DNA of 27,687 nt from an uncultured Pseudomonadota bacterium (GCA_913020725.1 CAJWCD010000037.1:1-27687), one strand, 5' to 3'; counted from the first letter of the stretch, positions 4,975 through 24,683 are shown. Notes: generated by a model not told the origin, from the letters alone. Translations and numbers: made by a program.

Positions 4975-6153
4975 TCAAACCTGACTCCACCACCAGCTTG
5001 CCTTGCGGCGTAGGCCGTGCTGGAGTTTGTCATCGATCCAAAGTGCCAACCTCCGCCAGCGCGTTCCAGCCAGCCAGCGCCACCAACGGGCCAACGGCTT
5101 AGTGAAGTCCCGATTGTACGGGCAGACCCGGATGCAAATGGAGCAGTCCGAATTCTGTGCCGCCCAGAACCCAAAACACTTTTCTGCAATCGTCGTCCAC
5201 TTGCGAACACCTGTGAGGTTTGAGCGGCTGTGAGGTTCCGGCTGGGGTTCGCCACTTGAGATCGCTTTGACCGGACAATTCGTGGAACACTTGTGGCAGA
5301 TTTCGCAGAATTCACGGACACCAAAATGTTGTGGCCGGTCCGGAACCAGCGGCAGGTCGGTGAAAATTTTCCCCAGTCGCAGCCTTGGCCCGAACTCCGG
5401 GGTGATCAGCAAGCTGTGCCGTCCGACCTCGCCCAGCCCGGCTTGTGCTGCCAGCGGCACCGCCAGCGCGGAATCGTTCATGGTCGCGTAAGCGCGGTAG
5501 CCGAGGTTTCGGAGGTACTGCGTTAGTGTGAGCAGCACCACCGCGTCCTGCGTGTAGCCCATACCGGTCGCAGCTCCGGAGAGGGCGGAAGGCACCGTCC
5601 ACATGAGGTCGCGGTCCATCGCCTCTCCAATCACGATCACCCACGGCAAATCGTCCGGAAGGTCCATCGGTTCGGCCTGTTGGGTGCGTTCGCTGTAGCG
5701 GGTGCGGTAAACCCAGCGTTCGTCATACGCACACACGCCCACCAAGTCCGCTCCCACAAAACCGGCGACGCGCTTGAGCTCCGCCGTCGCCTGCTCCGGG
5801 GATTCAAACGGAAACGGTTCCAGCCCGCCCTCGGCGTGGGTGGTGAACTCGGCAAGAAAACCCTCTTTGCGGTCTTCAGATTCGCGCTTCAAGTCCCGGA
5901 GGACATTGGTGACGTGCCACGTAGCGTTGCGCAGGGCGTAGTCACGCTGCCCAAAACCGTCCACGTTACGGGCGCGGGCCTGGGGCATGTCATGCCCCCG
6001 GTAAAACGCCTCGCTCTTGGCAGAGCGGATTTCCGGATCCCAGTCTGAACGGCAAAACGCCTCATCCCGCTGATCAAAACGCCGAAACTCTGCCGAAACC
6101 TCGAATCCGGTCTCGTGGTCAATCTCACGGAAGTTAGGGTTTTTCAAAGACAC
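4975..6153 (-). CDS. rdhA: Reductive dehalogenase (cobalamin/2xFe-S), lacking a Tat signal
   Basis: Motifs GADLVGVC.YDERWVY, MGY, LRNLGYRA, PLA.QAGLGE.GR..LLITPEFGPRLRL.KIFTDLPL, FCEICHKCSTNCP and KCFGFW...CSICIRVCPYN. Likely start is GTG at 6153; the ORF-track extension to 6291 overlaps the antitoxin gene. Confidence 0.85.
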   Translation of the reverse strand: MSLKNPNFREIDHETGFEVSAEFRRFDQRDEAFCRSDWDPEIRSAKSEAFYRGHDMPQARARNVDGFGQRDYALRNATWHVTNVLRDLKRESEDRKEGFLAEFTTHAEGGLEPFPFESPEQATAELKRVAGFVGADLVGVCAYDERWVYRTRYSERTQQAEPMDLPDDLPWVIVIGEAMDRDLMWTVPSALSGAATGMGYTQDAVVLLTLTQYLRNLGYRAYATMNDSALAVPLAAQAGLGEVGRHSLLITPEFGPRLRLGKIFTDLPLVPDRPQHFGVREFCEICHKCSTNCPVKAISSGEPQPEPHSRSNLTGVRKWTTIAEKCFGFWAAQNSDCSICIRVCPYNRDFTKPLARWWRWLAGTRWRRLALWIDDKLQHGLRRKASWWWSQV

Positions 6154-6157
6154 AGAC

Positions 6158-6379
6158 TTACGCCGCCGCCCGTTGCAACCCCACCCCTTCCAGGGTGACC
6201 GACCCCAGCACGTCCAAATCCGGGAGGCGTTCCCGAACATCAAGGATTTCCAAACCAACCAAGCGGCCATCTGCATCGTAATCTGCCGCAACCCCTTCGG
6301 TAAGGTGGACCGTCGTTACTGTGGTCTCTGCAAATGCGATCCGCATCGCGTCCACCTCGGCATCATATTGTATTTTCAT
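6158..6379 (-). CDS. DUF2283 family protein (putative type II antitoxin)
   Basis: 73 aa with the family-typical pattern MKIQYDAEVDAMRI...ADYDADGRLVGLEILD. Confidence 0.88.
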   Translation of the reverse strand: MKIQYDAEVDAMRIAFAETTVTTVHLTEGVAADYDADGRLVGLEILDVRERLPDLDVLGSVTLEGVGLQRAAA

Positions 6380-6385: not shown

Positions 6386-6667
6386 TCAGAAGTAGTAGGT
6401 GTACACAGTGATCACAACAATCTCCTCCACCTCTTCAACGAAGATCGGTCGAACCTGCTTGGTCGCATACTGTTTCCCATTCCACACTTGGTTATACAGG
6501 AAATCCTTGCGGTATTCCATCCGAGAGTTGCGTCCGGTCTTGGACTAAGCTGTGGTACGAATCGCCTGCTCCACCTCGTCCACCACAAACCCACGAATGT
6601 CGCAGTAGCCCTCAGCGTGGCGGCTGAGCCGGATAGGTTTTTCCTCAGTCAAAGCTTGACTTTGCAA
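6386..6667 (-). pseudogene. DUF4258 family putative toxin interrupted by an in-frame TAG
   Basis: Manual translation: (M)QSQALTEEKPIRLSRHAEGYCDIRGFVVDEVEQAIRTTA*SKTGRNSRMEYRKDFLYNQVWNGKQYATKQVRPIFVEEVEEIVVITVYTYYF. TAG is at 6545-6547. TTG start at 6667 has GGAG upstream (alternative TTG at 6652). Absent from the ORF track. Confidence 0.8.
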
Positions 6668-6720: not shown

Positions 6721-7974
6721 CTAGACCGAAACCTTCTGGAATCGTTCTTCTCGCCAAACTTCCGTGGATAGCACTTCCTTGAGTCGTTGGATCCCGGCCC
6801 AAATGTCCTCATGGCTATGGTACAATGGTGAGATTCCAAAGCGAATGGAATCGGGTTTCCGGAAGGAGGACACGACTCCATGCTCCAGCAGCGCCTCACT
6901 CACCGGACCAGCCCCCGGATGCCGGATGGAAACGTGCCCGCCTTGCTGAGAATGGTTGCGGGGTGAGGTCATTTCTGCTCCAAGTGGACCGCATTCCTGC
7001 TCCAGAAGTTCCCGGAACAATTGGGTCAACGATTCGTGTTTCCGGTCGAGTTCGTCCACTTGCACCTCCTGCCAAATTTCCACCGCTGCTGAAAAGATTT
7101 CGTTGGCCATGATCGCTGGCGATCCCGTGGTCTGGCTGATGATGCTGGGGTGAGCCTCATAATTTTGTGCAAAGGCAAATACGTCCAAGTGCCCCATCCA
7201 ACCTGCAATTGTGGGCCATGTCTGGTTTTGATGCCGGGGATGGATAAACAAGTATGCCGGAGCGCCTGGGCCTCCGCAGAGGTACTTGTAACTACAGCCA
7301 ACCGCAAAATCGGCATCGCATTCCATCAAATCAATCCTTACCGCACCAGCGGCGTGGGACAAATCCCAAACCACCAAGGCTCCCACCTCCTTGGCCTTCT
7401 GCATGAGACGGGACATCTCCCAGCGCAGACTGGTTCGATAGTCAACATAGGTCAAACTGACCACCGCAACTTCCTCGTTCAAGGAATCCATGACCTCCTC
7501 GTGCGAATTCGAGAATCTGATTTCTGCCTCGCTTCCAAGCTCTTGCACGGTTTTCACCCAGCCTTCAGCAATGTAGATGTCCGTGGGGAAATGGTTGGAC
7601 TCGGTCAACAGGATGTTGCCCCCCTTCCGGATTCGCCACGCATAGCTCAAAAGCTTGTAGAGATTGATGGAGGTACTGTCGCAGACGATCACATCCTCCG
7701 GGTTCGCACCCAGCAAATGGGCAATACCAGCCGCTAGTTTTTTCGGCTTGTCCAGCCAATCAAGTTTTGACCATCCTTGTCTGCTCAGATTCCGCCAACC
7801 TTCGTTGAGCATCCATGCCACTTGCTCCGGAACTGCCTTCGGCATGGCTCCCATCGAATTTGCATCGTAATGGATTGCACCGCTTTCCGATTGGGAAAAT
7901 TTGGCTCGCAAGGAGCGCAGGGGATCCTGCTCATCAAGCGTTTGGCAATCATTCAAATCAATCGATTTTTTCAT
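6721..7974 (-). CDS. kynU: Kynureninase-like PLP enzyme (aminotransferase class V fold)
   Basis: Motifs LDEQDPL..LRAKF, DANSMG, DSTSINLYK, FPTDIY, WDLSHAAGA, GCSYKYLCGGPG (PLP Lys), GWMGH and IRFGISPLY. Confidence 0.85.
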   Translation of the reverse strand: MKKSIDLNDCQTLDEQDPLRSLRAKFSQSESGAIHYDANSMGAMPKAVPEQVAWMLNEGWRNLSRQGWSKLDWLDKPKKLAAGIAHLLGANPEDVIVCDSTSINLYKLLSYAWRIRKGGNILLTESNHFPTDIYIAEGWVKTVQELGSEAEIRFSNSHEEVMDSLNEEVAVVSLTYVDYRTSLRWEMSRLMQKAKEVGALVVWDLSHAAGAVRIDLMECDADFAVGCSYKYLCGGPGAPAYLFIHPRHQNQTWPTIAGWMGHLDVFAFAQNYEAHPSIISQTTGSPAIMANEIFSAAVEIWQEVQVDELDRKHESLTQLFRELLEQECGPLGAEMTSPRNHSQQGGHVSIRHPGAGPVSEALLEHGVVSSFRKPDSIRFGISPLYHSHEDIWAGIQRLKEVLSTEVWREERFQKVSV

Positions 7975-7983
7975 TCTCAAGTG

Positions 7984-8406
7984 TTATTCCAGCAAAGTTT
8001 TGATTTGTAAAATTTCGTGTTCGTGAGCCGCGATCAGCCCACACCAGCGTTCATCATCCATGCTTTCAAGCCGCCACGCCATCATGGAAACTACACACTG
8101 CTCACTCGTTGTGCCAAGGCATTCTCCGGAAACCACCCGAATCATGATGCGCGGAACGAGTTGCTCCCGGAAGCCTCCGACAAAGAAATGGATCGTGTGG
8201 GTGCTTGCATCCGCCTGCACTTGTACCCAGACCGTGGTTCCGGTCTGCGTGACCACCCCCCTCGCCAGAGCGTTTTCAACAATCTCAATCTCAGACATGT
8301 TGAGGTTCCATGCCGCCATGCGCTCCAAGCTGGTGAGGTAGGCAAACGCCTCGTCTGCCCCGCAACGGACTTGCGCCGAGGCAATGTGAGCGTATCCGTC
8401 ATCCAT
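7984..8406 (-). CDS. SRPBCC/START-like ligand-binding domain protein
   Basis: About 140 aa with N-terminal pattern SAQVRCGADEAFAYLTSLERMAAW and a C-terminal helix HEHEILQIKTLLE. Start uncertain (8406 or 8454). Confidence 0.65.
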   Translation of the reverse strand: MDDGYAHIASAQVRCGADEAFAYLTSLERMAAWNLNMSEIEIVENALARGVVTQTGTTVWVQVQADASTHTIHFFVGGFREQLVPRIMIRVVSGECLGTTSEQCVVSMMAWRLESMDDERWCGLIAAHEHEILQIKTLLE

Positions 8407-8450
8407 GCGAATCAAACACAAGCGGTTGCCGTAGCGGCTTACTCCAAATC

Positions 8451-10085
8451 TCAATAATCACGCGCAGCGCCTTCCGGAGTCACGTAGCCCGCTTCAAGAT
8501 CCTGCTGAATTCGTTGCCGATCACGTTTTTGGGGATCCCCCAAGCCGCCGCCGCCCGGAAGTTCCACCCGGAGACGATCACCCTGCGGCACGGTGTAAAC
8601 CGCCTTGTCGGCGAATTCCATGCCGGAAACCAGTTGGGCCTTGCCCGGTCGGCCAGCTTGTCCCCCCTCGCGGCCTCGGGGAGGGTTGTGGATACGGTCG
8701 AAGGTCGCGGCGGAAATCGTGAAGGGCGCGGCCTCGGTATTGCCAACCTCGATGACCTGCCCCAAGCCCCCCCGAAACATTCCTGGACCCCCGGAATCGG
8801 ACAGGAACTCCTTGCGCCAAAAGACGAGTGGAGAATCGGATTCCGTGACCTCCACCGGAATTGCGCCCACCCCGCTTGGAAAAGCGGTCACGGAAAGGCC
8901 GTCCTTTCCGGGACGCGCTCCGACCCCGCCCATGCCGACGTTCATCACGTTGAAACGGGAAGCGCCTTGTCCGGTGTCAGCGAAGGGCAGCACCCAAATG
9001 CTACCAGCACTCTCAGCAGGGACTTTGCCTTCAAGAGCTTGCGCGAGGCATCCGAAGGCGACATCCGGGAGCATTTGCCCGATCACGTGCCTTGCTGTCA
9101 CAGGAGAAGGTGGTAGCGGGTGGACCACCGAACCCGATTCGGCAACGATCCGGAATAAACTCAGCGAACCCTGATTGTTGGGAACCTCCGGAGCGAGGAT
9201 GCACTTGAGTCCAAAAAAAGTGTAGGCTTCCGTGTAGCAAAGGGGGGAGTTGATGCCGTAGGCAGAGACAGAGGACGATCCGGAGTAGTCAATCACAATC
9301 TCCTCGTCCATAACCCGCATGACCGCCTTAAGCGTCACTGGAGACTCATACCCATCCAGTAGCATCTCCGTGGAATACTCGCCCTTGGGGACGGCGGTGA
9401 TGGCCTTTTTCATGGCCGCGCGGGAGTTGTCAAGAATGAACTCGGCCAGAGGCTCGATGGTATCCAGTTCGAACTCCCGCATCATTTCCTGCAAGCGAGC
9501 TTCCCCCGTGTCGTTACAGCTCACAAGCGAAAGGATGTCCCCTTTCACCTCCACGGGATTACGGCTATTCGCTTCCAAGATGCGCAAAAGGTCTTCATTC
9601 AAACGACCTTGGTCGCGCAGTTTCATGTGGGGAATGCAAATCCCTTCCTCGAAAACCGATTTTGCTTCCGCAGAAAACCCTCGGCCTCCAACGTCCATCA
9701 CATGGCAGGTCGAAGCAAACAGCGCAACCGCATTTCCCTTGTGGTATGCGGGGGAGACCACCACGAAATCGAAGAGGTGCCCTGTGCCCATCCAAGGGTC
9801 ATTGGTTACAAACACATCCCCGGAACGCATGGAATCCACCGGAAACCGGATCAGGAAATGCTGCACAGCCCTGGCCATTGTGTTGACATGCCCTGGAGTT
9901 CCTGTGACCGCCTGCGCGATCATGCGTCCCTGAAGATCGTAAATGCCCGTGGACAAATCCCCGGCCTCCCGGACCACCGAACCGAACGCAGTCCGCAGAA
10001 TCGCTTGAGCCTGTTCTTCAACCACGGCAATCAGGCGGTTCCACATCACCTGCTGGTGAATCTGCGCGAGGGCTTCCTTAGCCAT
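8451..10085 (-). CDS. hyuB: Hydantoinase B / 5-oxoprolinase subunit B family
   Basis: Motifs RTAFGSVVREAGDLS, GDVFVTNDPWMGTGHLFD, HVMDVGG, EEG, DSGGPGMFRGGLG and PGGGGLGDP. ATG 10085 has GGAG at 7 nt and overlaps the hyuA stop. Confidence 0.92.
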   Translation of the reverse strand: MAKEALAQIHQQVMWNRLIAVVEEQAQAILRTAFGSVVREAGDLSTGIYDLQGRMIAQAVTGTPGHVNTMARAVQHFLIRFPVDSMRSGDVFVTNDPWMGTGHLFDFVVVSPAYHKGNAVALFASTCHVMDVGGRGFSAEAKSVFEEGICIPHMKLRDQGRLNEDLLRILEANSRNPVEVKGDILSLVSCNDTGEARLQEMMREFELDTIEPLAEFILDNSRAAMKKAITAVPKGEYSTEMLLDGYESPVTLKAVMRVMDEEIVIDYSGSSSVSAYGINSPLCYTEAYTFFGLKCILAPEVPNNQGSLSLFRIVAESGSVVHPLPPSPVTARHVIGQMLPDVAFGCLAQALEGKVPAESAGSIWVLPFADTGQGASRFNVMNVGMGGVGARPGKDGLSVTAFPSGVGAIPVEVTESDSPLVFWRKEFLSDSGGPGMFRGGLGQVIEVGNTEAAPFTISAATFDRIHNPPRGREGGQAGRPGKAQLVSGMEFADKAVYTVPQGDRLRVELPGGGGLGDPQKRDRQRIQQDLEAGYVTPEGAARDY

Positions 10086-12180
10086 TTTCATGCTCCAGAG
10101 GCAGCGTTTCCATGACGATGTGACCGAGCGAATTGATGGATGCTGAAAAATGACCCGGAACAATGGTGGTGGTTTCCTCTTCTGCAATCACCGCAGGCCC
10201 GGAAAAACGGGTTCCGGGATTGAGGTCAAACCGCCAGTAAACGGGGCATTCGACCTGTTCTCCGGAAAAGGAATCATACACCTTTCGGTGGTTCAACGGA
10301 ATCGCAGAAGTATTCGGAACCCCATCCGCAGCTTTTTCGGGCGCATCCGGTTTCGTCGTCACTGTGACCGACCACGACACACTCTGCACCTCCATGTCCG
10401 GGATTCTCAATCCGTAGATCGTTTCGTATTGCTCCTCGAATTGCCCCCGCAGAGCCTCGGCATCTTTTAGCTCCAGCAGACGCTCTGGCAAAGGAATTCT
10501 CAACTCATGCCCCTGTCCGAGATAGCGGAGTTCCACGACTCGTTTTTCCAAGAAATCCTTGCTCCCGGTAACTCCTTGTGCGACCACCCCTCGGGCCTCC
10601 GCGCTCATTACCTCCAGAAGTTGGTTGACTTGGAAGGCGTCGAATTCCCGAAACTCCATCATCAGTGAACGGACCACCTCATAGGAGATGGGCGCCCGCA
10701 GAAATCCGATTGCTGAACCAACTCCAGCTCCGAAAGGAATCACCACCTTCGAAATCCCAAGCTTCTGCGCAAGCCGCCCCGCATGCAGTGGCGCCCCGCC
10801 GCCGAAGGCGATCATGGTGTGACGACCGATCACCTTGCCGCGTTCAATCGCGTGAACCCTTGCTGCGTTGACCATGTTCTCCTCGACAATTTCCACCACC
10901 CCCGTAGCGGGCCAGTGCCTCTCAAGACCAAGTTTGCCACCGATTTCCTGCGCCAGCACGACTTCGGACTTACTCGAATCCAGGGCAATCTTGCCCCCTG
11001 CGAAGCGTTCCGGATCAAGCTTTCCCAGCGCAAGGTTGGCATCGGTGACGGTGGCGTGGAGGCCTCCTCGTCCGTAGCAGGCCGGTCCCGGTTCAGAACC
11101 TGCGCTCTCCGGTCCCACCTGAATGCGTCCCATCTCGTCCACCTGCGCAATCGAACCTCCTCCGGCTCCGATCTCCACCATCTCAATCACTGGAATCCGC
11201 ACAGGCAGACCACTGCCCTTCAAATTCCGATACATGCGGGCAACCTCGAAGTGTCGGGAGCGTTCCGGCACACCGTTTTCAATCAGGCAGATTTTTGCCG
11301 TGGTCCCACCCATGTCAAAAGAAAGTGCCTCCGTGACTCCGCATTCCAATGCCACTTTTCCTGCCAGAATGGCCCCTCCCGCTGGACCTGATTCCACCAA
11401 CCGGATTGGAAACGTCGTTGCATTTTCAAGGGTGGTCAGACCTCCTCCGGACATCATCAGCAAAAGCGGGCATGACATGCCCCGTTCTTGAGCTAACACC
11501 TGCAAGCGTTGCAAGTATCCGGACATCAGCGGGCGGATGTAGGCGTTCGCGCAAGTGGTCGAAAATCGTTCGTACTCGCGCATTTCCGGACAGACCTCGC
11601 TGGAGAGGCAGATGGTCACTTCCGGGAGTTCGGTGGCAAGGATTTCGCGGATTCGCTGTTCGTGCGCTGGGTGGGCATAGGCATGCAGTAGGCCGACCGC
11701 GACCGCTTCAATCTCCACATGTTTCAGTTGTGCGATCGTTTTCAGCAGTCCGGATTCATCAAGCGCAAGCAAGGTTTCCCCCCTTGCGCTCATCCGCTCA
11801 GTGACCGGGAATCGCAACGGGCGCGGCACCAATGGCGTGGGCTTGTCCATATAAATGTCATAGTGTTCGAAGCGTTTCTCATGGCCCATCTCCAGAATGT
11901 CCCGGAATCCTTCCGTGGTGAGAAACGCGATTTTCGCACCCTTGCGCTCGATGAGCGCGTTCGTGCCCAGCGTGGTTCCATGAATGAAAAGCGCAACTTC
12001 ATCGGCTTCCGTTCCAGACTGCTCCAACACCTCTTCGAGTCCCTCCATCACGCCAAGTTCAGGAGCCTGCGAGGTTGTGAGCACTTTGGTCGAGAAACTC
12101 CGGCTTCCTGATTCCAGCACCACGTCTGTGAACGTGCCGCCGATGTCTGCGGCCAAACGGGTTTTGCGCATATTCATCAT
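10078..12180 (-). CDS. hyuA: Hydantoinase A / 5-oxoprolinase ATP-binding subunit family
   Basis: Motifs DIGGTFTD, HGTTLGTNALIERKGA, REYERFSTT, ESGPAGG, DMGGTT, IGAGGGS and GPESAGSEPGPACYGRGG. ATGA overlap with the Rid gene. Confidence 0.94.
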   Translation of the reverse strand: MMNMRKTRLAADIGGTFTDVVLESGSRSFSTKVLTTSQAPELGVMEGLEEVLEQSGTEADEVALFIHGTTLGTNALIERKGAKIAFLTTEGFRDILEMGHEKRFEHYDIYMDKPTPLVPRPLRFPVTERMSARGETLLALDESGLLKTIAQLKHVEIEAVAVGLLHAYAHPAHEQRIREILATELPEVTICLSSEVCPEMREYERFSTTCANAYIRPLMSGYLQRLQVLAQERGMSCPLLLMMSGGGLTTLENATTFPIRLVESGPAGGAILAGKVALECGVTEALSFDMGGTTAKICLIENGVPERSRHFEVARMYRNLKGSGLPVRIPVIEMVEIGAGGGSIAQVDEMGRIQVGPESAGSEPGPACYGRGGLHATVTDANLALGKLDPERFAGGKIALDSSKSEVVLAQEIGGKLGLERHWPATGVVEIVEENMVNAARVHAIERGKVIGRHTMIAFGGGAPLHAGRLAQKLGISKVVIPFGAGVGSAIGFLRAPISYEVVRSLMMEFREFDAFQVNQLLEVMSAEARGVVAQGVTGSKDFLEKRVVELRYLGQGHELRIPLPERLLELKDAEALRGQFEEQYETIYGLRIPDMEVQSVSWSVTVTTKPDAPEKAADGVPNTSAIPLNHRKVYDSFSGEQVECPVYWRFDLNPGTRFSGPAVIAEEETTTIVPGHFSASINSLGHIVMETLPLEHENG

Positions 12181-12599
12181 GGGTTGGGAATTCCAGAGCC
12201 TCGCAGGGCTTCAGCTTCGATTTCAACAAGGCAACCGGAAACAGCCAGAGCGGTGCAGACCGTGGTATTCGCCGGCCTAGTGAAGCCAAGCCTCGCTTTC
12301 AAAACAGAGGAAACTGAGGCCACATCTTCTGGATCAGGAATGAAGACTCTGACACGCACGACATCCTGCAAACCGGAATCCGCTTTCACAAGTGCGGACT
12401 CGATGGTGTTTAAGGCCACTTCCGCCTGCTCTTTGGCACTCTCCGGAAGTTTGCCCGTCTTAAAGTCAATCCCCACGGTTCCGGAAACAAAGATCTGGTC
12501 TTTTACAACCACAGCACGGGCATAGCCGGCTTGTTCTTCGTAGCTAGAACCAGAGAATATGTGCTGGCGGGGATGAGTTAATGGAGCTTTCAAGGACAT
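12177..12599 (-). CDS. Rid (YjgF/YER057c/UK114) family protein, non-RidA subfamily
   Basis: Motifs YEEQAGYARAV...FVSGT, DVVRVRVF, RPANTTV and LVEIEAEA. Confidence 0.9.
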   Translation of the reverse strand: MSLKAPLTHPRQHIFSGSSYEEQAGYARAVVVKDQIFVSGTVGIDFKTGKLPESAKEQAEVALNTIESALVKADSGLQDVVRVRVFIPDPEDVASVSSVLKARLGFTRPANTTVCTALAVSGCLVEIEAEALRGSGIPNP

Positions 12600-12646
12600 C
12601 TGGTGGCACTTATTGTTGAGTTGATTGAGCGAACAACACTGAGACT

Positions 12647-14131
12647 CTAATGGTCAATCACAGCCTCAGCTTCGATTTCAACCAGATGGTTCCCGATCAA
12701 CCCGGAAACCTCAAGAGTCGTATTGGCTGGGCAAAGACCTTCAAAATAACGGCCATGAACTCGGGAAACCTCCTCACAATGTGCCGTGTTCTTAAGGTAG
12801 ACCCGGGTCCGGACCACGTCAGCCAATGATCCGCCGAGGGCTGTGATTCCAGCAATAATCTTATCCAAGATGTAGACCGCCTGCCCGCGAGGGTCTCCAG
12901 CACAGATTACCCGATCCAAGCCATGAGTTGCCGTTGTGCCGCTCACCAAAATCCTGTTACCCACTCTAACTGCCCGTGAATACCCACATGCCGACTCCCA
13001 ATAACTTTCGCTGTTGATTCGCATACGCTTGGGCCTCTCAAAGATCGAAGTGGCATTGTAGAGTTTAGGAATTGATGCCAGGTGGTGGCTGAGATCCCCT
13101 GAAGCCGTGAGAAATGGTGGACGTCGATATTCCCGACCACAATCCCCCGCAATCCTTCGTGTCTTACTCAATGCTTCATCGATGAGGACGCGATCCTCTT
13201 CACTCAGTGAAAATGAGAAGACCGCAAGGTTGTCCCTGCGATGGTCTGTTGCGTTAAGTCTTGCCCCGATAATGGCCCCGGCAACGGCGGGCTGATCCAG
13301 GACCCAGCGTGTCGCTACATTGGTTATTGAAACATTTGATCGCCGGGCAATGGTATCCAGCACCTCAAGAATGTTCTGAAATGTCGCCCACCCCCCCGTC
13401 TCTTTGATGAAACCTTTGTACTTCATCTTGCTCCAATCCGTGATTTCCGCAACTGACGGCTCTGGCTTTCCCAACCAGCGTTCGGAAAGAAATCCACCAG
13501 CGACCACCCCGTAAGCCAACAGCTTGACGTTGTGCTCCAAACAAAAACTGCCCATCTCTTCCAAGGCCCTCCGATCGAGCAGTGACACAACGACTTGGTT
13601 GGTGAGAATATTGAAACCCTCCTTAATGAGCAAATGCAGATGGTCGGTGTCAAAATTGGTCAGTCCCAAGTGGGCGATCCGCCCTTCTTGTTGGGCCAGC
13701 GCTAGTCCTTCCATAGCCTCAAGGTAGCCTGGATGTTCAAATGACCACCAGTGAAACTGGAGGAGGTCAATGGTCTCCACCCCCAATCGGTCTGCACTTT
13801 CCCGGATGCCATCATACACAATCTGGGAAGTCATTAGTCCCGGCTTTGGGCACCACTTGGTATGGAATTTTGCCTGAATCGGAGAACTCTGACCGCATGG
13901 ATTGGTTTGAAGAATTTTCCGGGCACATCCCGCAATCAACTCTGCGCTGCCGTAGTGGTCTGCCATGTCAAAAGTGTCGAACCCCTCCGTCGCGTAGTCC
14001 ACCAACGTCTTCGCAGCCTGGTCTTGATCAAGCTGCTTGCCTTCTTTTTCTATATCAGCCACCTGCCAGAGACCCGTGATGATCTGGCTGATCTCATAGC
14101 CCGCGGCAAGTTGAGTTCGTAAAGGTGCCAT
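12647..14131 (-). CDS. Aldo-keto reductase fused to a C-terminal Rid domain
   Basis: N-terminal AKR (FDMADHYG, HTKW, DLLQFHWW, LGLTNFD, LAYGVVAGGFLS) plus about 125 C-terminal aa of Rid (WESACGYSRAVRVG...VSGTT, DVVRTRVY, PANTT, LVEIEAEA) in one ORF. Confidence 0.9.
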   Translation of the reverse strand: MAPLRTQLAAGYEISQIITGLWQVADIEKEGKQLDQDQAAKTLVDYATEGFDTFDMADHYGSAELIAGCARKILQTNPCGQSSPIQAKFHTKWCPKPGLMTSQIVYDGIRESADRLGVETIDLLQFHWWSFEHPGYLEAMEGLALAQQEGRIAHLGLTNFDTDHLHLLIKEGFNILTNQVVVSLLDRRALEEMGSFCLEHNVKLLAYGVVAGGFLSERWLGKPEPSVAEITDWSKMKYKGFIKETGGWATFQNILEVLDTIARRSNVSITNVATRWVLDQPAVAGAIIGARLNATDHRRDNLAVFSFSLSEEDRVLIDEALSKTRRIAGDCGREYRRPPFLTASGDLSHHLASIPKLYNATSIFERPKRMRINSESYWESACGYSRAVRVGNRILVSGTTATHGLDRVICAGDPRGQAVYILDKIIAGITALGGSLADVVRTRVYLKNTAHCEEVSRVHGRYFEGLCPANTTLEVSGLIGNHLVEIEAEAVIDH

Positions 14132-14224
14132 GGTTTATTTATTCGCAATGAGGTCTATTGAGGTTGTCGTCCAAGCAAGTCAACCACCATCTGCGTTAAT
14201 GAGATGGCACCCTCAGACGGGGGA

Positions 14225-15160
14225 CTATGATTGCGTATTCTTTTCTGGCAGCAGTCCTGCTGGGCGGAAAATGAGCATCAGCACCAAAACCACGCCAATC
14301 GTTATAAGCCGGAGTGCTGCTGCTTGAGTTTGGAAATCAGGAGTCACCATGACTGAGATAAGGCTGTCACTTGCCGACCACAAGGTCCAGATCATGATCG
14401 CCCCCAGTATGGCACCAAGATTATTCCCCTTTCCGCCAACAACCAGCATGACAAGGACTTGTATTGTAAAGATGGGCATAAAATCTTGTGGGCTGATGAA
14501 GCGCATGAAGTTCGCGTACATAGCCCCGGACAGCCCCATGATTGCGCATCCCACCACGAAAGCCTGTAGCCTGAAGCTGAACACATTTTTCCCCATCGCA
14601 CTTGCTGCCACTTCATCTTCCCTGATTGACCGCAGCACACGGCCCCATGGCGATTTGACAATGCGTTCAAGTGCTAGGTAGACCATTGCCACGAGGACAA
14701 GGCACAGCAGCAGATAAAGCAGGTTGTCGATCAGAGGATTATCTGAAACCTTTGCGAAGGGCTTTGGGAGTGCGTAGAGTCCGTTTGGTCCTCTTGTCAG
14801 CGAATCGACATTGTTCGCCACCAACTGAAGGCTGATGGCAATGCCAAAAGTTGAGATTGCCAGAAAATCCTCTCGAAGCCTGAGGGTAATCAAACCCACA
14901 AGCATACCCGCCAAACCCGAAACCATGATGGCAGCAACCCAACCCACCACGATTGGCAAATCGAAACCTCCCACCACCGTATCCGGGTAGCGAGGACCAG
15001 TCAGTAGTGCACTGGTGTAGGCACCAATTGCAAAAAAACCAGCGACCCCGACATTGAACATGCCCGTATACCCGTACTGAATATTGAGCCCCAGACAACT
15101 CAGCACATAGAACGAGCAGATGATGAGGAAAAAAATCAGGTAGGAGATAACTTCAATCAT
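14225..15160 (-). CDS. livM: Branched-chain amino acid-type ABC permease (LivM-like)
   Basis: Motifs LGLNIQYGYTGMFNVG, LRLREDFLAIST, SPWGRVLRSIREDE and RPAGLLPE. Start MIEV at 15160 overlaps the upstream stop. Confidence 0.9.
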   Translation of the reverse strand: MIEVISYLIFFLIICSFYVLSCLGLNIQYGYTGMFNVGVAGFFAIGAYTSALLTGPRYPDTVVGGFDLPIVVGWVAAIMVSGLAGMLVGLITLRLREDFLAISTFGIAISLQLVANNVDSLTRGPNGLYALPKPFAKVSDNPLIDNLLYLLLCLVLVAMVYLALERIVKSPWGRVLRSIREDEVAASAMGKNVFSFRLQAFVVGCAIMGLSGAMYANFMRFISPQDFMPIFTIQVLVMLVVGGKGNNLGAILGAIMIWTLWSASDSLISVMVTPDFQTQAAALRLITIGVVLVLMLIFRPAGLLPEKNTQS

Positions 15161-16058
15161 CTCTTTCTTTTTCTCCAAGAATACCTTGGGGTCTGAAAAC
15201 AAGCACCAGAATCAAGATCATGAACGAAATGGCTCCACGGTAGGCGGCCCCCCCTCCAGCCACTGCGAAGGATTCGGATAGACCAATCAAGAGCCCCCCC
15301 AACACGGCTCCGTAGACGCTGGTTACCCCACCCACAACCAGTGCTGCAAACATAGGCAGGATCAACTCAAATCCCATTTCAGGGTCAAGCTGCGTGATGT
15401 GAGCGTGTAGGGTTCCTGCAACCGCTGCCAAGGAGGCTCCAAGGATCCACGACCATTTGAAGACGCGTTCGACATTAATCCCGCTCACCATGGCCAGTGC
15501 AGGGTTCTCTGCCACGGCCCGCATCTTTTTTCCCATGGTTGATCGATTGAGGAAGACATGGAGACTTATGACACTGATCAGGGTGATGAACAGAATGAGC
15601 AAGTCATCAGGTAAGATTTTTACACCCTCCATAATCTTGATAGCTTTGGGGATGTAGAAGCTATAAAAGAGCTGATCCCCACCGGCGATCAGTGTAATCA
15701 CGTTTCTCACCATCAATGACACACCAAATGCGGCAATAATGAAGGTGATGCGTGATGCCTGCTTTTGTCTCAAAATCCGGAACAGAACCCAATCCACCCC
15801 CAACACCAACAAGCACGTTACAAGCATGGAAAACACCATTGACCCCAGCAGGGGCCAACCTAGAGAAATCGGACCAAGCCTGCCAATGCCAATCCCCATC
15901 AGAGAAACAAGTGCCAAGGAAACATAAGCCCCCACTGCAAGCACTTCCCCTTGGGCAAAGTTCGCAAAACGCAGCACGTTGTAGGTGATGCTAAGTCCAA
16001 CAGCACCAAGGGCAATGATGGAACCGTTGACCAAACCGTCAATTAAGAACTGGATCAT
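15153..16058 (-). CDS. livH: Branched-chain amino acid-type ABC permease (LivH-like)
   Basis: Motifs GLVNGSIIALGAVGLS, NFAQGE, GKKMRAVAENP.LA..SGIN and RPQGILG. Confidence 0.9.
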   Translation of the reverse strand: MIQFLIDGLVNGSIIALGAVGLSITYNVLRFANFAQGEVLAVGAYVSLALVSLMGIGIGRLGPISLGWPLLGSMVFSMLVTCLLVLGVDWVLFRILRQKQASRITFIIAAFGVSLMVRNVITLIAGGDQLFYSFYIPKAIKIMEGVKILPDDLLILFITLISVISLHVFLNRSTMGKKMRAVAENPALAMVSGINVERVFKWSWILGASLAAVAGTLHAHITQLDPEMGFELILPMFAALVVGGVTSVYGAVLGGLLIGLSESFAVAGGGAAYRGAISFMILILVLVFRPQGILGEKERDD

Positions 16059-16061
16059 GGA

Positions 16062-16793
16062 TCAATTTCCCGGTGTTGCTCCAAAGTATATCTCTCTCAT
16101 GCTTGGATGTTCTAAAAGTTCATCAGCGGGACCCTCCAGCCTCAATTTCCCTTCAGAAAGCACAATGCCTCTGTCCGAAACCTTGAGAGCCGCACGGGCA
16201 TTCTGCTCAACCATGACAACCGTGACTCCGTCTTCATGGATTCTCTGAACGTGTTCGAAGACCTGCCGTCTCAGCAAGGGTGATAAGCCGGCTGAAGGTT
16301 CATCCAGCATCAGCAGTTCAGGGTTGGACATCAGCGCACGGGCAAGCGCCAGCATCTGCCTCTGGCCTCCCGATAGTTTTCCCGCCTTGGTTTCCTGGTA
16401 TTTCTGCAAGTCGGGAAAAAGCTGAAACATCCGGTTGAGTCGTTCTTTCCGAAAATCCGGATTGGCAATCGCCCCAAGGTCAAGGTTGTGCAGGACACTC
16501 AGCCGGGAGAAGACATTATTGGTTTGGGGGACATAGGCGATGGCCTGATTGATGATCTCGTGAGTCGATAAACCGGAAATCTCCTTGCTGCGAAACCTGA
16601 CCTTCCCCTCTGTGTATTTGACTAAACCGCAGATTGAACGGATCAGGGTTGATTTTCCCGCACCGTTTGGGCCAAGTATGGTAACAATCTCTCCTTCCCT
16701 GACAGAAATTGAAACATCTTCAATGATCATCATGGAAGACACATAACCCGCAGTAAGTTGATCGACCTCCAGTATTATTCGAGCTTTGGACAT
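16062..16793 (-). CDS. livF: ABC ATP-binding protein (LivF-like)
   Basis: Walker A GPNGAGKST, signature LSGGQRQMLA, Walker B LMLDEPSAGL, VEQN. Start 16793 or 16823. Confidence 0.92.
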   Translation of the reverse strand: MSKARIILEVDQLTAGYVSSMMIIEDVSISVREGEIVTILGPNGAGKSTLIRSICGLVKYTEGKVRFRSKEISGLSTHEIINQAIAYVPQTNNVFSRLSVLHNLDLGAIANPDFRKERLNRMFQLFPDLQKYQETKAGKLSGGQRQMLALARALMSNPELLMLDEPSAGLSPLLRRQVFEHVQRIHEDGVTVVMVEQNARAALKVSDRGIVLSEGKLRLEGPADELLEHPSMREIYFGATPGN

Positions 16794-16878
16794 GGATGTT
16801 TGCTCAGGCTCCACGATACGCAACGATTATCGTAGGCTACTATTCAAGAGTTTTGTGATTAGATCGAAATCCAGACCT

Positions 16879-17631
16879 CTACTCACCAAAAAAGGCATCC
16901 AGTAATCTTTTATCGGAGCGCACCTGCTCAGGGCTTCCCTGCATCATAATAGACCCCTCGGCCATGACGAGGATTGGGGAACACAATTTCATGATCAGAT
17001 CCATATTGTGTTCAATGATCAGGAAAGTCACCCCCATTTCATTGATCTCCCTGATCCGGTCGATAATTTCTTCCAACAAAACAGGGTTCACTCCTGCCGC
17101 AGGTTCGTCTAAGAGAATCATTCGTGGTTTGGACATCATCGCCCGCCCAAGCTCAAGCAATTTTAGCTGCCCCCCCGAAAGGTGCATGGAGGGTTCATCC
17201 CTCAATGCCGCCAGCTTAAGGAATTCAAGGATCTCCAGTGCTTTTTCTCGATTGGTTGCTTCCTGACGTTTGACTTGCTTGAGACGGATCCAGTTATTCC
17301 AAAGGTTCTCACCTAGTTGCGAACCGGGCACCATCATCATGTTCTCCAGAACCGTCATGCCGGAAAAAGGACGAGGAATCTGAAAAGTGCGGACAATGCC
17401 CAGATGAAATGTCTCATAGGATTTCATCCCGGAAATTTCCTGCTTTCCAAAGAACACGGCTCCGCTGGTTGGACTATCATGTCCTGCGATAATGTTGAAG
17501 GTAGTGGTTTTACCCGCCCCGTTGGGGCCGATCAACCCAGTGATAGTTCCAAGCTCTACCGAAAAATTCACGCTGTTGACGGCATGCAGTCCGTCAAATT
17601 CTTTGCAGAGGTTCTTGACCGTGAGCAGCAT
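16879..17631 (-). CDS. livG: ABC ATP-binding protein (LivG-like)
   Basis: Motifs GPNGAGKTT, RTFQ, LSGGQLKLLELGR, LLDEPAAG and IEHNM. Confidence 0.92.
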   Translation of the reverse strand: MLLTVKNLCKEFDGLHAVNSVNFSVELGTITGLIGPNGAGKTTTFNIIAGHDSPTSGAVFFGKQEISGMKSYETFHLGIVRTFQIPRPFSGMTVLENMMMVPGSQLGENLWNNWIRLKQVKRQEATNREKALEILEFLKLAALRDEPSMHLSGGQLKLLELGRAMMSKPRMILLDEPAAGVNPVLLEEIIDRIREINEMGVTFLIIEHNMDLIMKLCSPILVMAEGSIMMQGSPEQVRSDKRLLDAFFGE

Positions 17632-17800
17632 TTTGATTGGAGATCTATTTGTGCCGACTAGAGAACCTTAAAATGGGAAAATCGAGCAGCAGGAGGGCTC
17701 TTGTAAAATCAGAGGATATTTTTAAAATATCTCATATCCTATACCACGGATTCTTGTAAAAAACACATCCGCTTTAGCCTTAAAAGTTATTTCTTCCCAG

Positions 17801-17841
17801 AAAAACTGGAGACTGGAAAGAAGCATTCCAGTCTCCAGTTT
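17801..17841 (-). terminator. Rho-independent terminator/attenuator downstream of the substrate-binding protein gene
   Basis: Perfect 16-bp inverted repeat AAACTGGAGACTGGAA (17803-17818) / TTCCAGTCTCCAGTTT (17826-17841) with a 7-nt loop. Ends in TTTTT on the - strand and starts 22 nt after the stop at 17864. Confidence 0.8.
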
Positions 17842-17863
17842 GACATTGTTGTCCTGACCTAGA

Positions 17864-19171
17864 TTAGTTCTTCATGTTCCGGACGTTTGCTTTGATCTTG
17901 TTGATCTCTTCAAGGCTGATTCCACCGACATCAACATACTTGCCACCCTTGATCTTCATCTTCACAAAGGGGCCAGCCACATCTCCATAGGGATCGAAGT
18001 TGATGGGGCCAGTTGCGCCGACATACCAGATGTCCATGCCCGCCTTGATGGCGGTTAGGGCATCCTTTAACCCTTGAACACCCGCTCTGAACTGCTTTCC
18101 AGTCGGTCCTGTGATTTCTCTTACATGCTTTGCGAGGGTTGGCCCCTTGATATCCGTTCCTCGTATATCTGCGGTCACCATGGCAAGTCCGATCAGCACT
18201 CCTGCATCATAACCAGAGTTCCGTCCCGGTCCTTTGGGAGTGGCATTCCAGCGTTTTTGAAAATCCGCTTCCATCTTTACCAATGAAGAATTCTCGGGCA
18301 CCCCTGGACTGATGAACCAAGCATTCTTGAGGTTCTCAGATCCTACCGTATCGACAAAAGCGGAGTCATTCATACCCTGAGGCATGATGAAATTTAGAGG
18401 GCCATCAAAGCGGACCCAGTCTCGAAAATGCTTCACACCATCCTGAATGTTGCTGAGCAGGTATAAACTGTCGGGGTTGCCTTCCAGCGTTTTTGTGATT
18501 TCCGCACGATACGAAGGTTGGTCGGGGTTGAAGGGGACGGCTTGGGCAATTTCTCCACCTAACGCCCTAAAGGCGTCAACGAATTCCCCTTGGTTGTTTT
18601 TACCCCAGTCGTTGTTCCAATAAAGAATGGCCGGCCTGCGAAAACCAGCATCATAGGCCATTTTGGCCGCAGCTACTGCTTGTAGGGAATCTGCAGGGAG
18701 AGTGCGGAAGAACAACCCCTTGGTCTCACCACGCTTGCCCATGTTGGTGAAGGTTGAAGATGTTGAAGCGGTGGCAATAACCAGAATCTCTTCCTCAACC
18801 GTGACTGAACTCAACAAAGGTGCCGTGATCCCTGACGAGATTGGACCAACCAGTGCTGTCACGCCTTCTAGATCAATCAGCTTTCTTGCGGCATCCACAG
18901 CAACAGAGGCTTGCGTGTTGGAATCGCGAACATCATAAACGAGTTCACAACCGATACCAAGTTGCTTTCTTGCTTCGTTGACCTGCTCAACCCCCAGTTG
19001 GGCAGCCCTAGAAATGGGAACACCATGGGCACCATAGGCTCCGGTCAATGAGAGAATGGACCCAATCTTGTGGGTACACTGAGCCGCATGGGATGGACTC
19101 AACAAGCCCGCAACGACAATTCCGAACACCGTTAAAACGGCAATCATGACCCTTTGTTTAGCAATTCTCAT
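17864..19171 (-). CDS. ABC substrate-binding protein, LivJ/K (periplasmic binding protein type 1) family
   Basis: Signal peptide MRIAKQR...PSHA; motifs KIGSILSLTG, GPISS, FFRT.P.DSLQ, NNDWG and Y.GATGPINFD..GD. RBS AAGGAG before ATG 19171. Confidence 0.9.
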   Translation of the reverse strand: MRIAKQRVMIAVLTVFGIVVAGLLSPSHAAQCTHKIGSILSLTGAYGAHGVPISRAAQLGVEQVNEARKQLGIGCELVYDVRDSNTQASVAVDAARKLIDLEGVTALVGPISSGITAPLLSSVTVEEEILVIATASTSSTFTNMGKRGETKGLFFRTLPADSLQAVAAAKMAYDAGFRRPAILYWNNDWGKNNQGEFVDAFRALGGEIAQAVPFNPDQPSYRAEITKTLEGNPDSLYLLSNIQDGVKHFRDWVRFDGPLNFIMPQGMNDSAFVDTVGSENLKNAWFISPGVPENSSLVKMEADFQKRWNATPKGPGRNSGYDAGVLIGLAMVTADIRGTDIKGPTLAKHVREITGPTGKQFRAGVQGLKDALTAIKAGMDIWYVGATGPINFDPYGDVAGPFVKMKIKGGKYVDVGGISLEEINKIKANVRNMKN

Positions 19172-19737
19172 ATCAGTCTCCTTGAGATAGTTGATCATTG
19201 TTCTGTCAACACAGAACAAAGTGAAACGGAGTACAAGACTCCAACCATGATTTCGTCGACGCTACACTAAAACCGAGGTTCTTGCGCAATCCATGCAGTC
19301 GAGCAAACTTTACCACTGTAATTGCCTAGCAATGCCTCTGGAGGCCAACTGGGACGACTGCCCCTCGCTGGAGGGTGCTGTCTCAGCGGAAGTTCCCAGC
19401 ACGTTGGTCCCCACCGAATCTGCGATTCCGATTGTTTGCGGCGGTCGTTAAAGAATCTAAATATCTCGCTCTGCACCCCGTTATGCAGGAATAGCAGGCA
19501 TCCAGATTTGAAGGTTATTCTCTATCCTTAGTTGAAGGTTAATAATATTCTAGAAACGAGTATTTCTCTATCGTTGAGGTATACAGTAACTCATTTTTTT
19601 AGAAACACAAGATAAATTTTATACTTGATTTTTTTTGCTATAAAACATCCATACCCTTGTCATCTTCCGGTTACCAACACGCCATTATTTGCACCTTGGG
19701 TTCCGTTGAAAACTCATCTTACTCAAGCGGCTCAAGG

Positions 19738-20793
19738 TTATTCCGTCTTATTCTGATTATAGCGCATGATGCTTCCATGATGTCCAGTTTTGTCGCGTTC
19801 CAGATCGTAACAATCTCCATTTAAAACGGTGCGTTTTTTGAGAATCGTGTCAATCAAAGCATAATCGTCATCGGTCATGGAAAACTCAAAAACTCTAAGA
19901 TTTTCTTCAAGATGGAGGGTTGAAGTTGCACCAATAATCAGGGCAGCAACTCCGGGACGATCCAATACCCATCTCATAGCAACAAGCGGCATGGTCACTC
20001 CATATCTATCAGACACTTGCTTCAGAATCTGTAGCAGTTCTTGAAACAGTGTCCAGCCGCCAAAGTCATCTATAATCAGTTTGTACTTGGTCAGCGAGCG
20101 ATTTGCAAAGAGTTCAGTGGGTTCGGGCTTACCCATCCAGTCTTCCGAAAAAAACCCACCAGCCAATGTACCATAGCACAATTGGTTGATTCCGTTATCA
20201 AGGCAATAAGGGATGAGTTTTTTTTCTGGTCGGGTATCAAGCAGAGAATACTGAGGCTGATTACTCTCCATAGGCACCCCGGTGTCAATCAGTGTACGGA
20301 GTTGTCGTGTATTGAAATTCGAGACACCGAGACGATCAATTTTCCCCTCGGTTTTCAAGTCTCCCAGAAGTAATGCGGTATCAATGTACCCTGGTATACC
20401 GTCAGGATCCCACCAGTAGAATTGCACAAGATCGAGTCGTTCGACATGTAAACGCTTAAGAGATCGGTCGATTATTTTTTCCACATAGGTTCGATCAACG
20501 TTACCCAGTTGTTCATAATCGGGCACGAACTTAGTATGGATCTTCACCTGAGATGCAAGACTAGGATAAGCCTTCCGAAAATTCCCAATCAATTCCTCAA
20601 CCCCGGTGTAGTGATCGGCGCAATCAAATGTCGTAATCCCTGCCTCAACAAATGCCGCCATATCTTTGACCGCCTGATCTGGGTCAATCTCTCCATGACC
20701 ACCAGCGAGATGCCATCCCCCTTTGATCAGACGAGAGATTGAGTAACCAGATTGCAAATCTGTTCTTTCAACCCTGTTTTTTTTCTTCTCCAT
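19738..20793 (-). CDS. Aldo-keto reductase
   Basis: Motifs IKGGWHLAGGHG, FDCADHYTG.E, HTKFVPD, SLKRL..ERLDLVQFYWWD, GVSNF, QYSLLD.RP and CYGTLAGGF. Confidence 0.92.
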   Translation of the reverse strand: MEKKKNRVERTDLQSGYSISRLIKGGWHLAGGHGEIDPDQAVKDMAAFVEAGITTFDCADHYTGVEELIGNFRKAYPSLASQVKIHTKFVPDYEQLGNVDRTYVEKIIDRSLKRLHVERLDLVQFYWWDPDGIPGYIDTALLLGDLKTEGKIDRLGVSNFNTRQLRTLIDTGVPMESNQPQYSLLDTRPEKKLIPYCLDNGINQLCYGTLAGGFFSEDWMGKPEPTELFANRSLTKYKLIIDDFGGWTLFQELLQILKQVSDRYGVTMPLVAMRWVLDRPGVAALIIGATSTLHLEENLRVFEFSMTDDDYALIDTILKKRTVLNGDCYDLERDKTGHHGSIMRYNQNKTE

Positions 20794-20796
20794 TTT

Positions 20797-21186
20797 TTAG
20801 TCGACTGCTGGAAGTGGCACGATTGTCGTTTCCGCATGACTGAAGATTCGTTTAGCAATCCTTGTGATGCGAAACCGCCCTCCACAATTTGGATCTGAGC
20901 AGGCAACAATAGCATCAGTTGTCATCCAATCATTCTTATCTGTCAGGCGTTGCTTAGCAGGCAACAGCGGTAATAGGGCAGCAAGTGGATACATGGGGAA
21001 ACTTTTCCGGCCTTCTTCTGGAAAAATGATCTTTTCACCAATGACATGAAAATATTCACCTTCCTGGTGATCACAAACCATAGGGATATCACCAAAAATG
21101 ACTTCTACTTTTAAATCATAAAGTTCAAACAAACCTGAATCATGATCATTGCTCATTTGAGTCGTATGCTCATGGTTTTTGTTCAT
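20797..21186 (-). CDS. TIGR04076-like small cysteine-containing protein
   Basis: FELYDLKVEV...MVCDHQEGEYF...YPLAALLPLLPAKQR...NDWMTTD...ACSDPNC..RFRITR; family call is from memory of this motif pattern. Its stop lies 3 nt before the AKR start. Start 21186 or 21156. Confidence 0.72.
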   Translation of the reverse strand: MNKNHEHTTQMSNDHDSGLFELYDLKVEVIFGDIPMVCDHQEGEYFHVIGEKIIFPEEGRKSFPMYPLAALLPLLPAKQRLTDKNDWMTTDAIVACSDPNCGGRFRITRIAKRIFSHAETTIVPLPAVD

Positions 21187-22211: not shown

Positions 22212-22229
22212 CGTTCGCCTCCCGTTCCT

Positions 22230-24600: not shown

Positions 24601-24646
24601 GAGGCGAGACTGCCGAAAACGGGAATAGATTAGGAAAGGAGAGCAG

Positions 24647-24673
24647 CCGGGGAGCACAGTAGCCACTCCCCGG
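24647..24673 (-). other. Stem-loop just downstream of the substrate-binding protein gene
   Basis: CCGGGGAG (24647-24654) / CTCCCCGG (24666-24673), 10 nt after the stop at 24684. No U-tract on the - strand. Confidence 0.6.
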
Positions 24674-24683
24674 AAAATTGGGC

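Follow-up and report, generated by a model that had tools for sequence, protein, structure and literature searches.

Among described systems, the closest to the gene cluster reported here are the kynA-kynB-kynU pathway, the iaa cluster for indoleacetate in Aromatoleum/Azoarcus and the iad loci of Variovorax/Bradyrhizobium. The cluster consists of 13 genes in contig C37 (27,687 nucleotides (nt), hereafter the window) of G000, the genome of an uncultured Pseudomonadota bacterium, and encodes a Liv-type importer, two aldo-keto reductases (AKR-A and AKR-B), two Rid domains, a TIGR04076 protein, an ATP-dependent lactamase (HyuAB), an SRPBCC protein and a kynureninase-like enzyme (KynU). Its substrate is probably derived from tryptophan in some form. 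Our preferred reading, which is tentative and to which we give a little less than an even chance, is that the cluster scavenges oxindole-type oxidised tryptophan by import, ATP-dependent opening of the lactam and cleavage dependent on pyridoxal phosphate (PLP).

The iaa cluster resembles the present one in its two-subunit ATP-dependent lactamase, its ATP-binding cassette (ABC) importer and, if our reading holds, its oxindole opening step, but it also comprises a CoA ligase, a CoA transferase, a mutase and a molybdoenzyme, none of which is found among the 13 genes, where kynureninase-like and AKR genes stand instead. For IaaCE, the HyuAB homologue of that system, opening of 2-oxindoleacetate has been proposed (PMC8453981, section 2.1). 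The iad loci, which are marked by IorAB-type genes, lead from indoleacetate by way of dioxindole and isatin to anthranilate in the account given in the accessible text of PMC9613470, the early steps having been revised in bioRxiv 10.1101/2025.10.25.684584; in the accessible text of these two papers the word "hydantoinase" occurs 0 times. The dioxindole/isatin chemistry towards anthranilate is a likeness, and in four alphaproteobacteria the extended cluster is bordered by genes of the IorAB type, but iad starts with the Rieske oxygenase IadDE and removes the side chain through CoA, and neither is encoded in the window. With the kynurenine pathway, represented by PDB entry 1QZ9, the cluster shares the kynureninase fold, the PLP lysine, the Asp/His residues, both tryptophans and the carboxylate-binding arginine; kynA and kynB, however, are not part of it and lie on C90/C82 and C28 of G000, and neither a kynA nor a formamidase gene stands beside kynU in the window. 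An earlier note on this DNA had recognised no described pathway with this gene combination, and the comparisons with kyn, iaa and iad agree, the locus having neither the canonical kyn operon nor the iad arrangement. A literature search, with subscription journals and supplements outside its scope, likewise returned no description of the gene set and no microbial route for importing, opening or repairing oxidised tryptophan. The parts belong to known families and their logic resembles that of kyn, iaa and iad, but the gene set itself is uncharacterised.

The features are given below from the first gene downwards, marked as core or add-on according to the two layers described further on; SBP denotes the substrate-binding protein.

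20797..21186, minus strand: small protein of the TIGR04076 family, constant neighbour of AKR-A, core (TIGR04076, 52 bits, above 33)
19738..20793, minus strand: AKR-A, aldo-keto reductase, core (PF00248 and motifs)
19172..19737, minus strand: intergenic stretch of 566 nt, likely promoter and long leader (alignment with G001)
17864..19171, minus strand: SBP of the Liv/HAAT fold, a subfamily of its own, core (PF13458)
16879..17631, minus strand: LivG-like ATPase, core (domain and profile matches)
16062..16793, minus strand: LivF-like ATPase, core (domain and profile matches)
15153..16058, minus strand: LivH-like permease, core (domain match)
14225..15160, minus strand: LivM-like permease, core (domain match)
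12647..14131, minus strand: fusion of AKR-B with a Rid domain that lacks the arginine (AKR-B::Rid), core (PF00248 and PF01042)
12177..12599, minus strand: stand-alone Rid with Asn at the RidA Arg105 site (PF01042; TIGR00004 at 60.6, below 106.25)
10078..12180, minus strand: HyuA, ATP-binding subunit of the ATP-dependent lactamase, add-on (PF01968/PF05378/PF19278)
8451..10091, minus strand: HyuB, metal-binding subunit, add-on (PF02538)
7984..8406, minus strand: small protein of the SRPBCC/START fold, add-on (PF10604 at 23.5, below the cut-off of 27.4; Atlas 0.97-0.98)
6721..7974, minus strand: divergent kynureninase of a separate clade, add-on (TIGR01814 at 255.8, above 246.4)
4975..6150, minus strand: gene of the reductive dehalogenase family, outside the span, start uncertain at about 6150 (TIGR02486 at 186.6, above 160.35)

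All 13 open reading frames (ORFs) between 6721 and 21186 lie on the minus strand, as the earlier note had stated, and the families it had named are confirmed by profile and domain scores, for the SRPBCC protein by the Atlas in spite of the low Pfam score. The importer that it saw embedded in the cluster comprises the SBP, two ATPases and two permeases. The tight junctions were reproduced as well: with the chosen starts, TIGR04076 and AKR-A are 3 nt apart, Rid and hyuA overlap by 4 nt, hyuA and hyuB, noted simply as overlapping, by 14 nt, and SRPBCC and kynU are separated by 9 nt; in addition, livF and livH are 3 nt apart and livH overlaps livM by 8 nt. Wider gaps of 566 nt from AKR-A to the SBP gene and 232 nt from there to livG mean that the span is probably more than one transcript. 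Along the cluster the GC content at third codon positions (GC3) rises from 0.35 in TIGR04076 to 0.65 in hyuB, with flanks at 0.63-0.77.

These 13 genes form a unit beyond chance, as they recur together elsewhere. In G001, of the same genus, all 13 are found in the same order behind a different upstream flank, and in G022, from another genus, all 13 are present between unrelated flanks as the circular permutation hyuAB-SRPBCC-kynU-TIGR04076-AKR-A-SBP-liv-AKR-B::Rid-Rid, which places kynU 57 nt before TIGR04076. The co-occurrence across genomes that the earlier note had asked for was found, and the core is widespread in addition; as far as they could be examined here, none of the outcomes that the note had named as refuting its reading came about. 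A second Liv importer at 21273-25931 was considered as a member of the unit and rejected, as it does not lie beside the cluster in G001 or G022.

The unit has two layers, a widespread core of TIGR04076, AKR-A, the Liv-type importer and AKR-B::Rid, and an add-on of HyuAB, SRPBCC and the kynureninase-like gene. Neighbour content was read from chosen ORFs and tblastn. Searches with the SBP found 32 genome loci (L048-L079), and in the 22 of at least 16 kb that were counted we see TIGR04076 in 18, AKR-A in 17, Rid in 16, any hyuAB in 13, hyuAB of the window type in 8, a kynU-like gene in 7, a formamidase-like hydrolase in 10 and SRPBCC in 6. TIGR04076-type matches occur in 8 of 88 genomes of the same phylum, 21 of 401 alphaproteobacterial and 2 of 400 gammaproteobacterial genomes, the latter two counts resting on 11 scored candidates per genome, and AKR-A is present at 20 of 21 sampled TIGR04076 loci. 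Many hosts of the core live in soil or in association with plants, and some plasmids of cultured Rhizobiales and Rhodobacterales carry it as well. It is a compact cassette with unrelated flanks, often accompanied by a GntR gene, in cultured Microvirga, Neorhizobium, Paroceanicella, Alloyangia and Acuticoccus; Alloyangia pacifica, Paroceanicella profunda and Neorhizobium sp. NCHU2750 are among these carriers. Alphaproteobacteria hold both layers in yet another gene order, and many of their loci add a second HyuAB type (36% identical to the HyuB of the window), a racemase/decarboxylase, a DUF4440-like protein and a flavoprotein oxidase; a pipecolate-oxidase-like flavoprotein and an isochorismatase are also among the add-ons. 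Records filed under Flavobacteriales, Nitrospiraceae, Chloroflexi and SAR202 (L046, L048, L049, L051) were left uncounted as evidence of phylum spread. The one under Flavobacteriales, L046, shares 99-100% identity with the window and is probably mis-binned.

Three lines of sequence evidence point to tryptophan: the clade of the kynureninase, the neighbours of the cluster and a set of leader operons. The kynureninase-like protein matches 1QZ9 (P. fluorescens kynureninase) at E 6e-92 and keeps K232 (the PLP lysine), D206, H209, W261 and R380 (carboxylate-binding), numbered from a TTG at 7980, and although it passes TIGR01814 itself, the orthologues in G022, G092 and G895 stay below the cut-off at 225-239. 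In a 38-row tree (FastTree, midpoint root) the eight cluster copies, from the window, G001, G022 and five alphaproteobacteria, join 14 chosen database homologues in one clade with a support of 99, apart from the KynUs encoded beside kynA. This clade, which has at least 100 relatives, differs from KynU of the 1QZ9 type by the exchanges G-to-A, I-to-R and D-to-S. It keeps the substrate-stacking Trp70, the new arginine (Arg67) stands three residues before it and the serine lies near the C-terminal Arg; among 120 listed homologues the serine is found in all and the arginine, read by pattern, in 104. The added positive charge of Arg67, presumably near the ring pocket, would suit a substrate with an extra carboxylate. 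A tryptophan and a threonine at the positions of human H102 and N333 mark the kynurenine-preferring bacterial enzymes in the accessible text of PMC11329768; the threonine position is Ser287 in the window, G001 and G022, and Thr in the five alphaproteobacterial copies. All eight genomes with a cluster KynU carry a second KynU, which in G000 is encoded on C15. As separate observations, an Atlas cluster of 65 members, 744 amino acids long, has a PrnB domain fused to a kynureninase-like domain, and G000 contains a second tryptophan dioxygenase gene in pieces (C82:11484-12253; L185) beside hydratase, acyl-CoA dehydrogenase and CoA-ligase-like genes.

The second line is the genomic neighbourhood. 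In G092, G682 and G895 the genes that come immediately after the cluster are those of the IorAB type, a reductive dehalogenase gene and kynA. The first two of these genomes have, beyond kynA, genes for KynU, Rid, a short-chain dehydrogenase/reductase, an acyl-CoA dehydrogenase and a protein above the PRK08255 cut-off, a family that we take to be that of the 2-aminobenzoyl-CoA monooxygenase/reductase AbmA. In G595, which was sampled by its TIGR04076 gene only, the core lies between IorAB and a 51% relative of PRK08255, and on a Caballeronia plasmid the importer stands beside the same genes. On a Natronosalvus plasmid about 9 kb separate TIGR04076/AKR-A from IDO, kynU and trpB, a weak sign in the same direction. 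The formamidase-like proteins counted in 10 of the 22 SBP loci are alpha/beta hydrolases with a likeness to kynurenine formamidase (4E11, E 1e-19).

The third line comes from bacteria in which TIGR04076/AKR-A follow a PrnB/IDO-like gene. Three such loci belong to the alphaproteobacterial sample of 21 matches in 401 genomes and a fourth to six genomes of the same order; all four genomes are small and represent one lineage. The PrnB/IDO-like label is that of the Atlas alone, with no PDB sequence match and no Pfam match at E 1e-5, and in three genomes (L204:6106-7273, L205:10224-11382, L220) a break at a similar position divides the gene into two ORFs, while G868 has two whole copies. The AKR of these operons falls inside the AKR-A clade (support 89). 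In G764, G633 and G894 a short ORF ending in Trp-Trp-Arg precedes the operon; in G868 the first gene is trpS, and a Trp-Trp-type ORF stands before a divergent paralogue instead. By its likeness to trp attenuators, the Trp-Trp leader may sense a shortage of tryptophan. No trpA was found in G868, G633 and G764, in a search whose control was found in 14 of 14 and which shows trpA in G000.

In the lactamase, all three ATP motifs are present in HyuA and HyuB keeps each of the four metal-binding residues of CapB, as the residues are given in the accessible text of PMC8453981, a likeness to CapAB, OplA and N-methylhydantoinase (PDB 6YRA, 7HK5). The cluster proteins nevertheless score far under the caprolactamase CapAB cut-offs (485.9 and 174.7 versus 1000) and under those of acetophenone carboxylase (253.9 and 83.9 versus 1500). 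Elsewhere in G000, C58 (L032:5402-15571) carries a second hyuAB (51-55%) with a Liv-type importer of its own and a gene of the phosphodiesterase family inside the operon.

Among the core proteins, the TIGR04076 protein has three cysteines that are each kept in 55 of 56 sequences. Its structure model (pLDDT 86) gave no clear family in fold searches, the match to the XdhC N-terminal-like entry 2WE7 being weak (Z 7.0, root-mean-square deviation 3.4 over 77 aligned residues; Foldseek E 0.57), and in a published passage that mentions TIGR04076 no function is shown. The core further includes the two reductases, whose family uses a catalytic tetrad Asp-Tyr-Lys-His. This tetrad is complete in AKR-B, whose clade has an SH-like approximate likelihood ratio test (SH-aLRT) support of 100 and whose motifs presumably resemble those of a plant and algal AKR family; AKR-A, in a clade of 74 rows (SH-aLRT 89), keeps Asp-Tyr-Lys with Tyr at the His position, where orthologues have His, Tyr, Cys or Phe. 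A third AKR type beside AKR-A (L064:12004-13020 and 21 similar ORFs) has Glu/Arg/Gln at the catalytic Asp/Lys/His and is a possible pseudo-enzyme partner. Both Rid domains resemble RidA in fold and in the conserved Glu, with 3I7T as best PDB match, but unlike the imine deaminases RidA/Rid1-3 they lack the catalytic Arg105, replaced by Asn in the alignment to RidA-type chains; we take their motif to be that of Rid6. On account of this residue a role as imine deaminase was rejected, and it places both among the arginine-less subfamilies Rid4-Rid7, which carry out no imine hydrolysis and whose function is called unknown in the accessible text of PMC4433059. For the arginine-less Rid and SRPBCC domains, binding or chaperoning of intermediates is a more likely role than deamination.

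The importer does not score as that of LIV-I, the transport system for branched-chain amino acids, as every subunit falls below the respective model: the SBP scores 34.8 versus 477, LivF 222.8 versus 441, LivG 215.6 versus 362, LivH 136.3 versus 379 and LivM 150 versus 366. Ordinary LIV-I transport was rejected on this ground. The best PDB match of the SBP has E 6e-13, and relatives at 77-83% are abundant in public assemblies. About 400 nt before its gene (19172-19560) are similar in G001, and RNA contigs from four studies end at 19543-19566, so that this stretch is possibly a long regulatory leader; its predicted fold did not exceed pair-shuffles (z -0.6 in the window, -1.7 in G001), no conserved small ORF was found in it, a promoter scan gave 8 sites versus 5.2 +/- 2.3 by chance, and an Rfam scan of the whole window gave 0 matches. 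Seawater RNA libraries contain the SBP sequence in 17 runs, in nine of them with a share of at least 0.2. Judged by these runs, by the 88 genomes of its phylum and by a relative filed under Deltaproteobacteria, the host is probably a member of SAR324. Four runs cover 18-28 of 30 bins, in contigs that show neither strand nor level and may include DNA carry-over; the bin 20568-21151 in TIGR04076 is without cover in all four, an absence that contigs cannot establish.

On our preferred reading, in which we infer every substrate and step, the importer would take up oxindolylalanine or dioxindolylalanine, HyuAB would open the lactam ring with ATP, in the way proposed for IaaCE acting on 2-oxindoleacetate, and the divergent kynureninase would cut off alanine with the aid of PLP. 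Starting from dioxindolylalanine, the opened product would be a 4-hydroxy-4-aryl-glutamate, and retro-aldol cleavage, of which kynureninase is capable, would give alanine and 2-aminophenylglyoxylate; both starting compounds are products of tryptophan oxidation. The remaining 2-aminoaryl acid would enter an anthraniloyl-CoA route encoded elsewhere; G000 has relatives of such a route on other contigs (PRK08255 53%, hydratase 66%, dehydrogenase 59%). The core of TIGR04076, AKR-A and AKR-B::Rid would be a separate NAD(P)H-dependent redox module whose predicted substrates are of the same class. The earlier note had proposed import, reduction, ring opening and PLP-dependent cleavage of an N-heterocyclic compound resembling an amino acid, for instance a tryptophan oxidation product. 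Its link to tryptophan gains independent genomic support from the present data, but a single linear route of 13 genes does not stand, as the core is alone in most carriers, the Rids lack the deaminase arginine, AKR-A has Tyr for His and KynU is a paralogue, accompanied by a second KynU in the genome.

Several observations weigh against the scavenging of oxindole-type compounds. Distant AKR-B::Rid relatives led to 56 metagenome loci, and the 31 of at least 11 kb that were counted hold the SBP in 24, TIGR04076 in 18, hyuAB in one and a kynU-like gene in none; at 10 plasmid loci, which like the metagenome set have a distant SBP or none, TIGR04076 and AKR-A are present in all 10, hyuAB in one and a kynU-like gene (at least 35% identity) in none. 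The add-on may thus be lineage-specific, and from these counts and the compact cassettes of cultured hosts the core appears to work without HyuAB and KynU. The alphaproteobacteria that bear kynU, including G092, G682 and G895, are close kin, and a tryptophan-type neighbour was seen at 6 of the 21 sampled alphaproteobacterial TIGR04076 loci, from three lineages only, with none among the annotated genes of the other 15. G000 has no relative of IorA or PrnB at E 1e-15. The formamidase-like hydrolases score higher with the esterases 9N8R and 2PBL and are missing from the window. Relatives of HyuB at 50-53% occur in unrelated contexts on 217 plasmids, so that membership of the family says little about the substrate; in the 3 of these 217 records that were read there was no known pathway. 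At ordinary loci, 282 stretches of 500 nt before TIGR04076, SBP and AKR-B genes were scanned for Trp-Trp leaders; 15 had one, and no leader was shared between lineages. A scan of this length falls short of the PrnB-type operons' own leaders, whose position is more distant.

A core that is useful alone, and that should yield tryptophan in hosts without trpA, leads to the idea of reductive repair. TIGR04076 and AKR-A, with AKR-B::Rid, might be a repair reductase that returns oxidised tryptophan, for example a 3a-hydroxypyrroloindole form, to L-tryptophan, which we regard as unlikely but worth stating. If true, it would explain why the core occurs alone with an importer in many bacteria and why the pair has been retained, preceded by a Trp-Trp leader, in bacteria without trpA, and deep-sea lineages would have added HyuAB and a new kynureninase clade for forms beyond repair.

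A first rival, which we consider distinctly unlikely, is that the importer takes up compounds whose ring is already open, such as N-formylkynurenine, kynurenine, dihydrokynurenine or a kynurenate-like molecule, that the AKRs interconvert keto and hydroxy forms, that KynU cleaves and that HyuAB deals with a cyclised side product. Interconversion of this kind is ordinary AKR chemistry, the formamidase-like hydrolases would find their place, and the KynU of the window scores above the TIGR01814 cut-off and has the Trp that marks enzymes with a preference for kynurenine (accessible text of PMC11329768). The three cluster orthologues at 225-239 bits do not pass it, however, each genome already has another KynU, and the operons with a Trp-Trp leader would be left unexplained, as kynurenine cannot be turned into tryptophan without trp genes.

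Closely connected with the dehalogenase gene at 4975-6150, which is likely linked functionally to the cluster, is a second rival. Halogenated tryptophan or kynurenine of marine origin would be the substrate, KynU accepting the halogenated ring and the dehalogenase stripping the halogen from the haloanthranilate. The gene follows kynU in the window, relatives at 60-64% lie beside kynA in G092, G682, G895 and G798, others at 44% adjoin the importer in L054 and L055, and PrnB acts on 7-chlorotryptophan. In G022 (48%) and G001, however, the relative is on another contig, the junction in G001 being unassembled, none was found with this query in G595 and G089, many soil and plant-associated hosts carry the core but no dehalogenase, and HyuAB is not accounted for. 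We judge it improbable as an alternative; it can coexist with the uptake of oxindole-type compounds. This rival and the ring-opened one, taken together with our preferred reading, make up the probability that we assign to a tryptophan-derived substrate.

It is improbable in our view that the substrate is an N-heterocycle or lactam amino acid unrelated to tryptophan, the kynureninase fold having been taken over to cleave a different C-C bond. The lack of a tryptophan-type neighbour at most core loci and the pipecolate-oxidase-like flavoprotein, isochorismatase, racemase/decarboxylase and second HyuAB type among the add-ons would suit it, but the continuity with kynA, abmA and IorAB, trpS, the PrnB/IDO-like gene and the Trp-Trp leaders would all be unaccounted for. 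Finally, a mosaic of a redox-import core and a functionally separate lactamase-kynureninase block, held together by genomic clustering only, would match the GC3 gradient, the two gaps and a core that is mostly alone, but is very improbable given the permuted set of 13 in G022 with kynU close before TIGR04076 and the alphaproteobacteria that retain both layers in a different order.

Around the cluster, two small ORF remnants lie on the minus strand between kynU and the dehalogenase gene (6158-6379 and about 6386-6667), a 73-amino-acid ORF and, upstream of it, a partner broken across two reading frames; the former is presumably a DUF2283 protein and the pair, as we take it, resembles a small toxin-antitoxin system. 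On the opposite strand, 166-3983 encodes a molybdoenzyme of the coxSLM type, for which no link to the cluster was found; it scores below the cut-off for CO dehydrogenase, and the genome has about nine such paralogues in all.

The cluster offers a testable handle on four orphan groups, TIGR04076, the arginine-less Rid, the AKR subfamily and the kynureninase clade, and the presence of the core on plasmids of cultured bacteria makes it testable now. Oxidised tryptophan is released from all decaying protein. With SBP relatives abundant and the sequence present in seawater RNA, marine dissolved organic nitrogen may indeed include the substrate.

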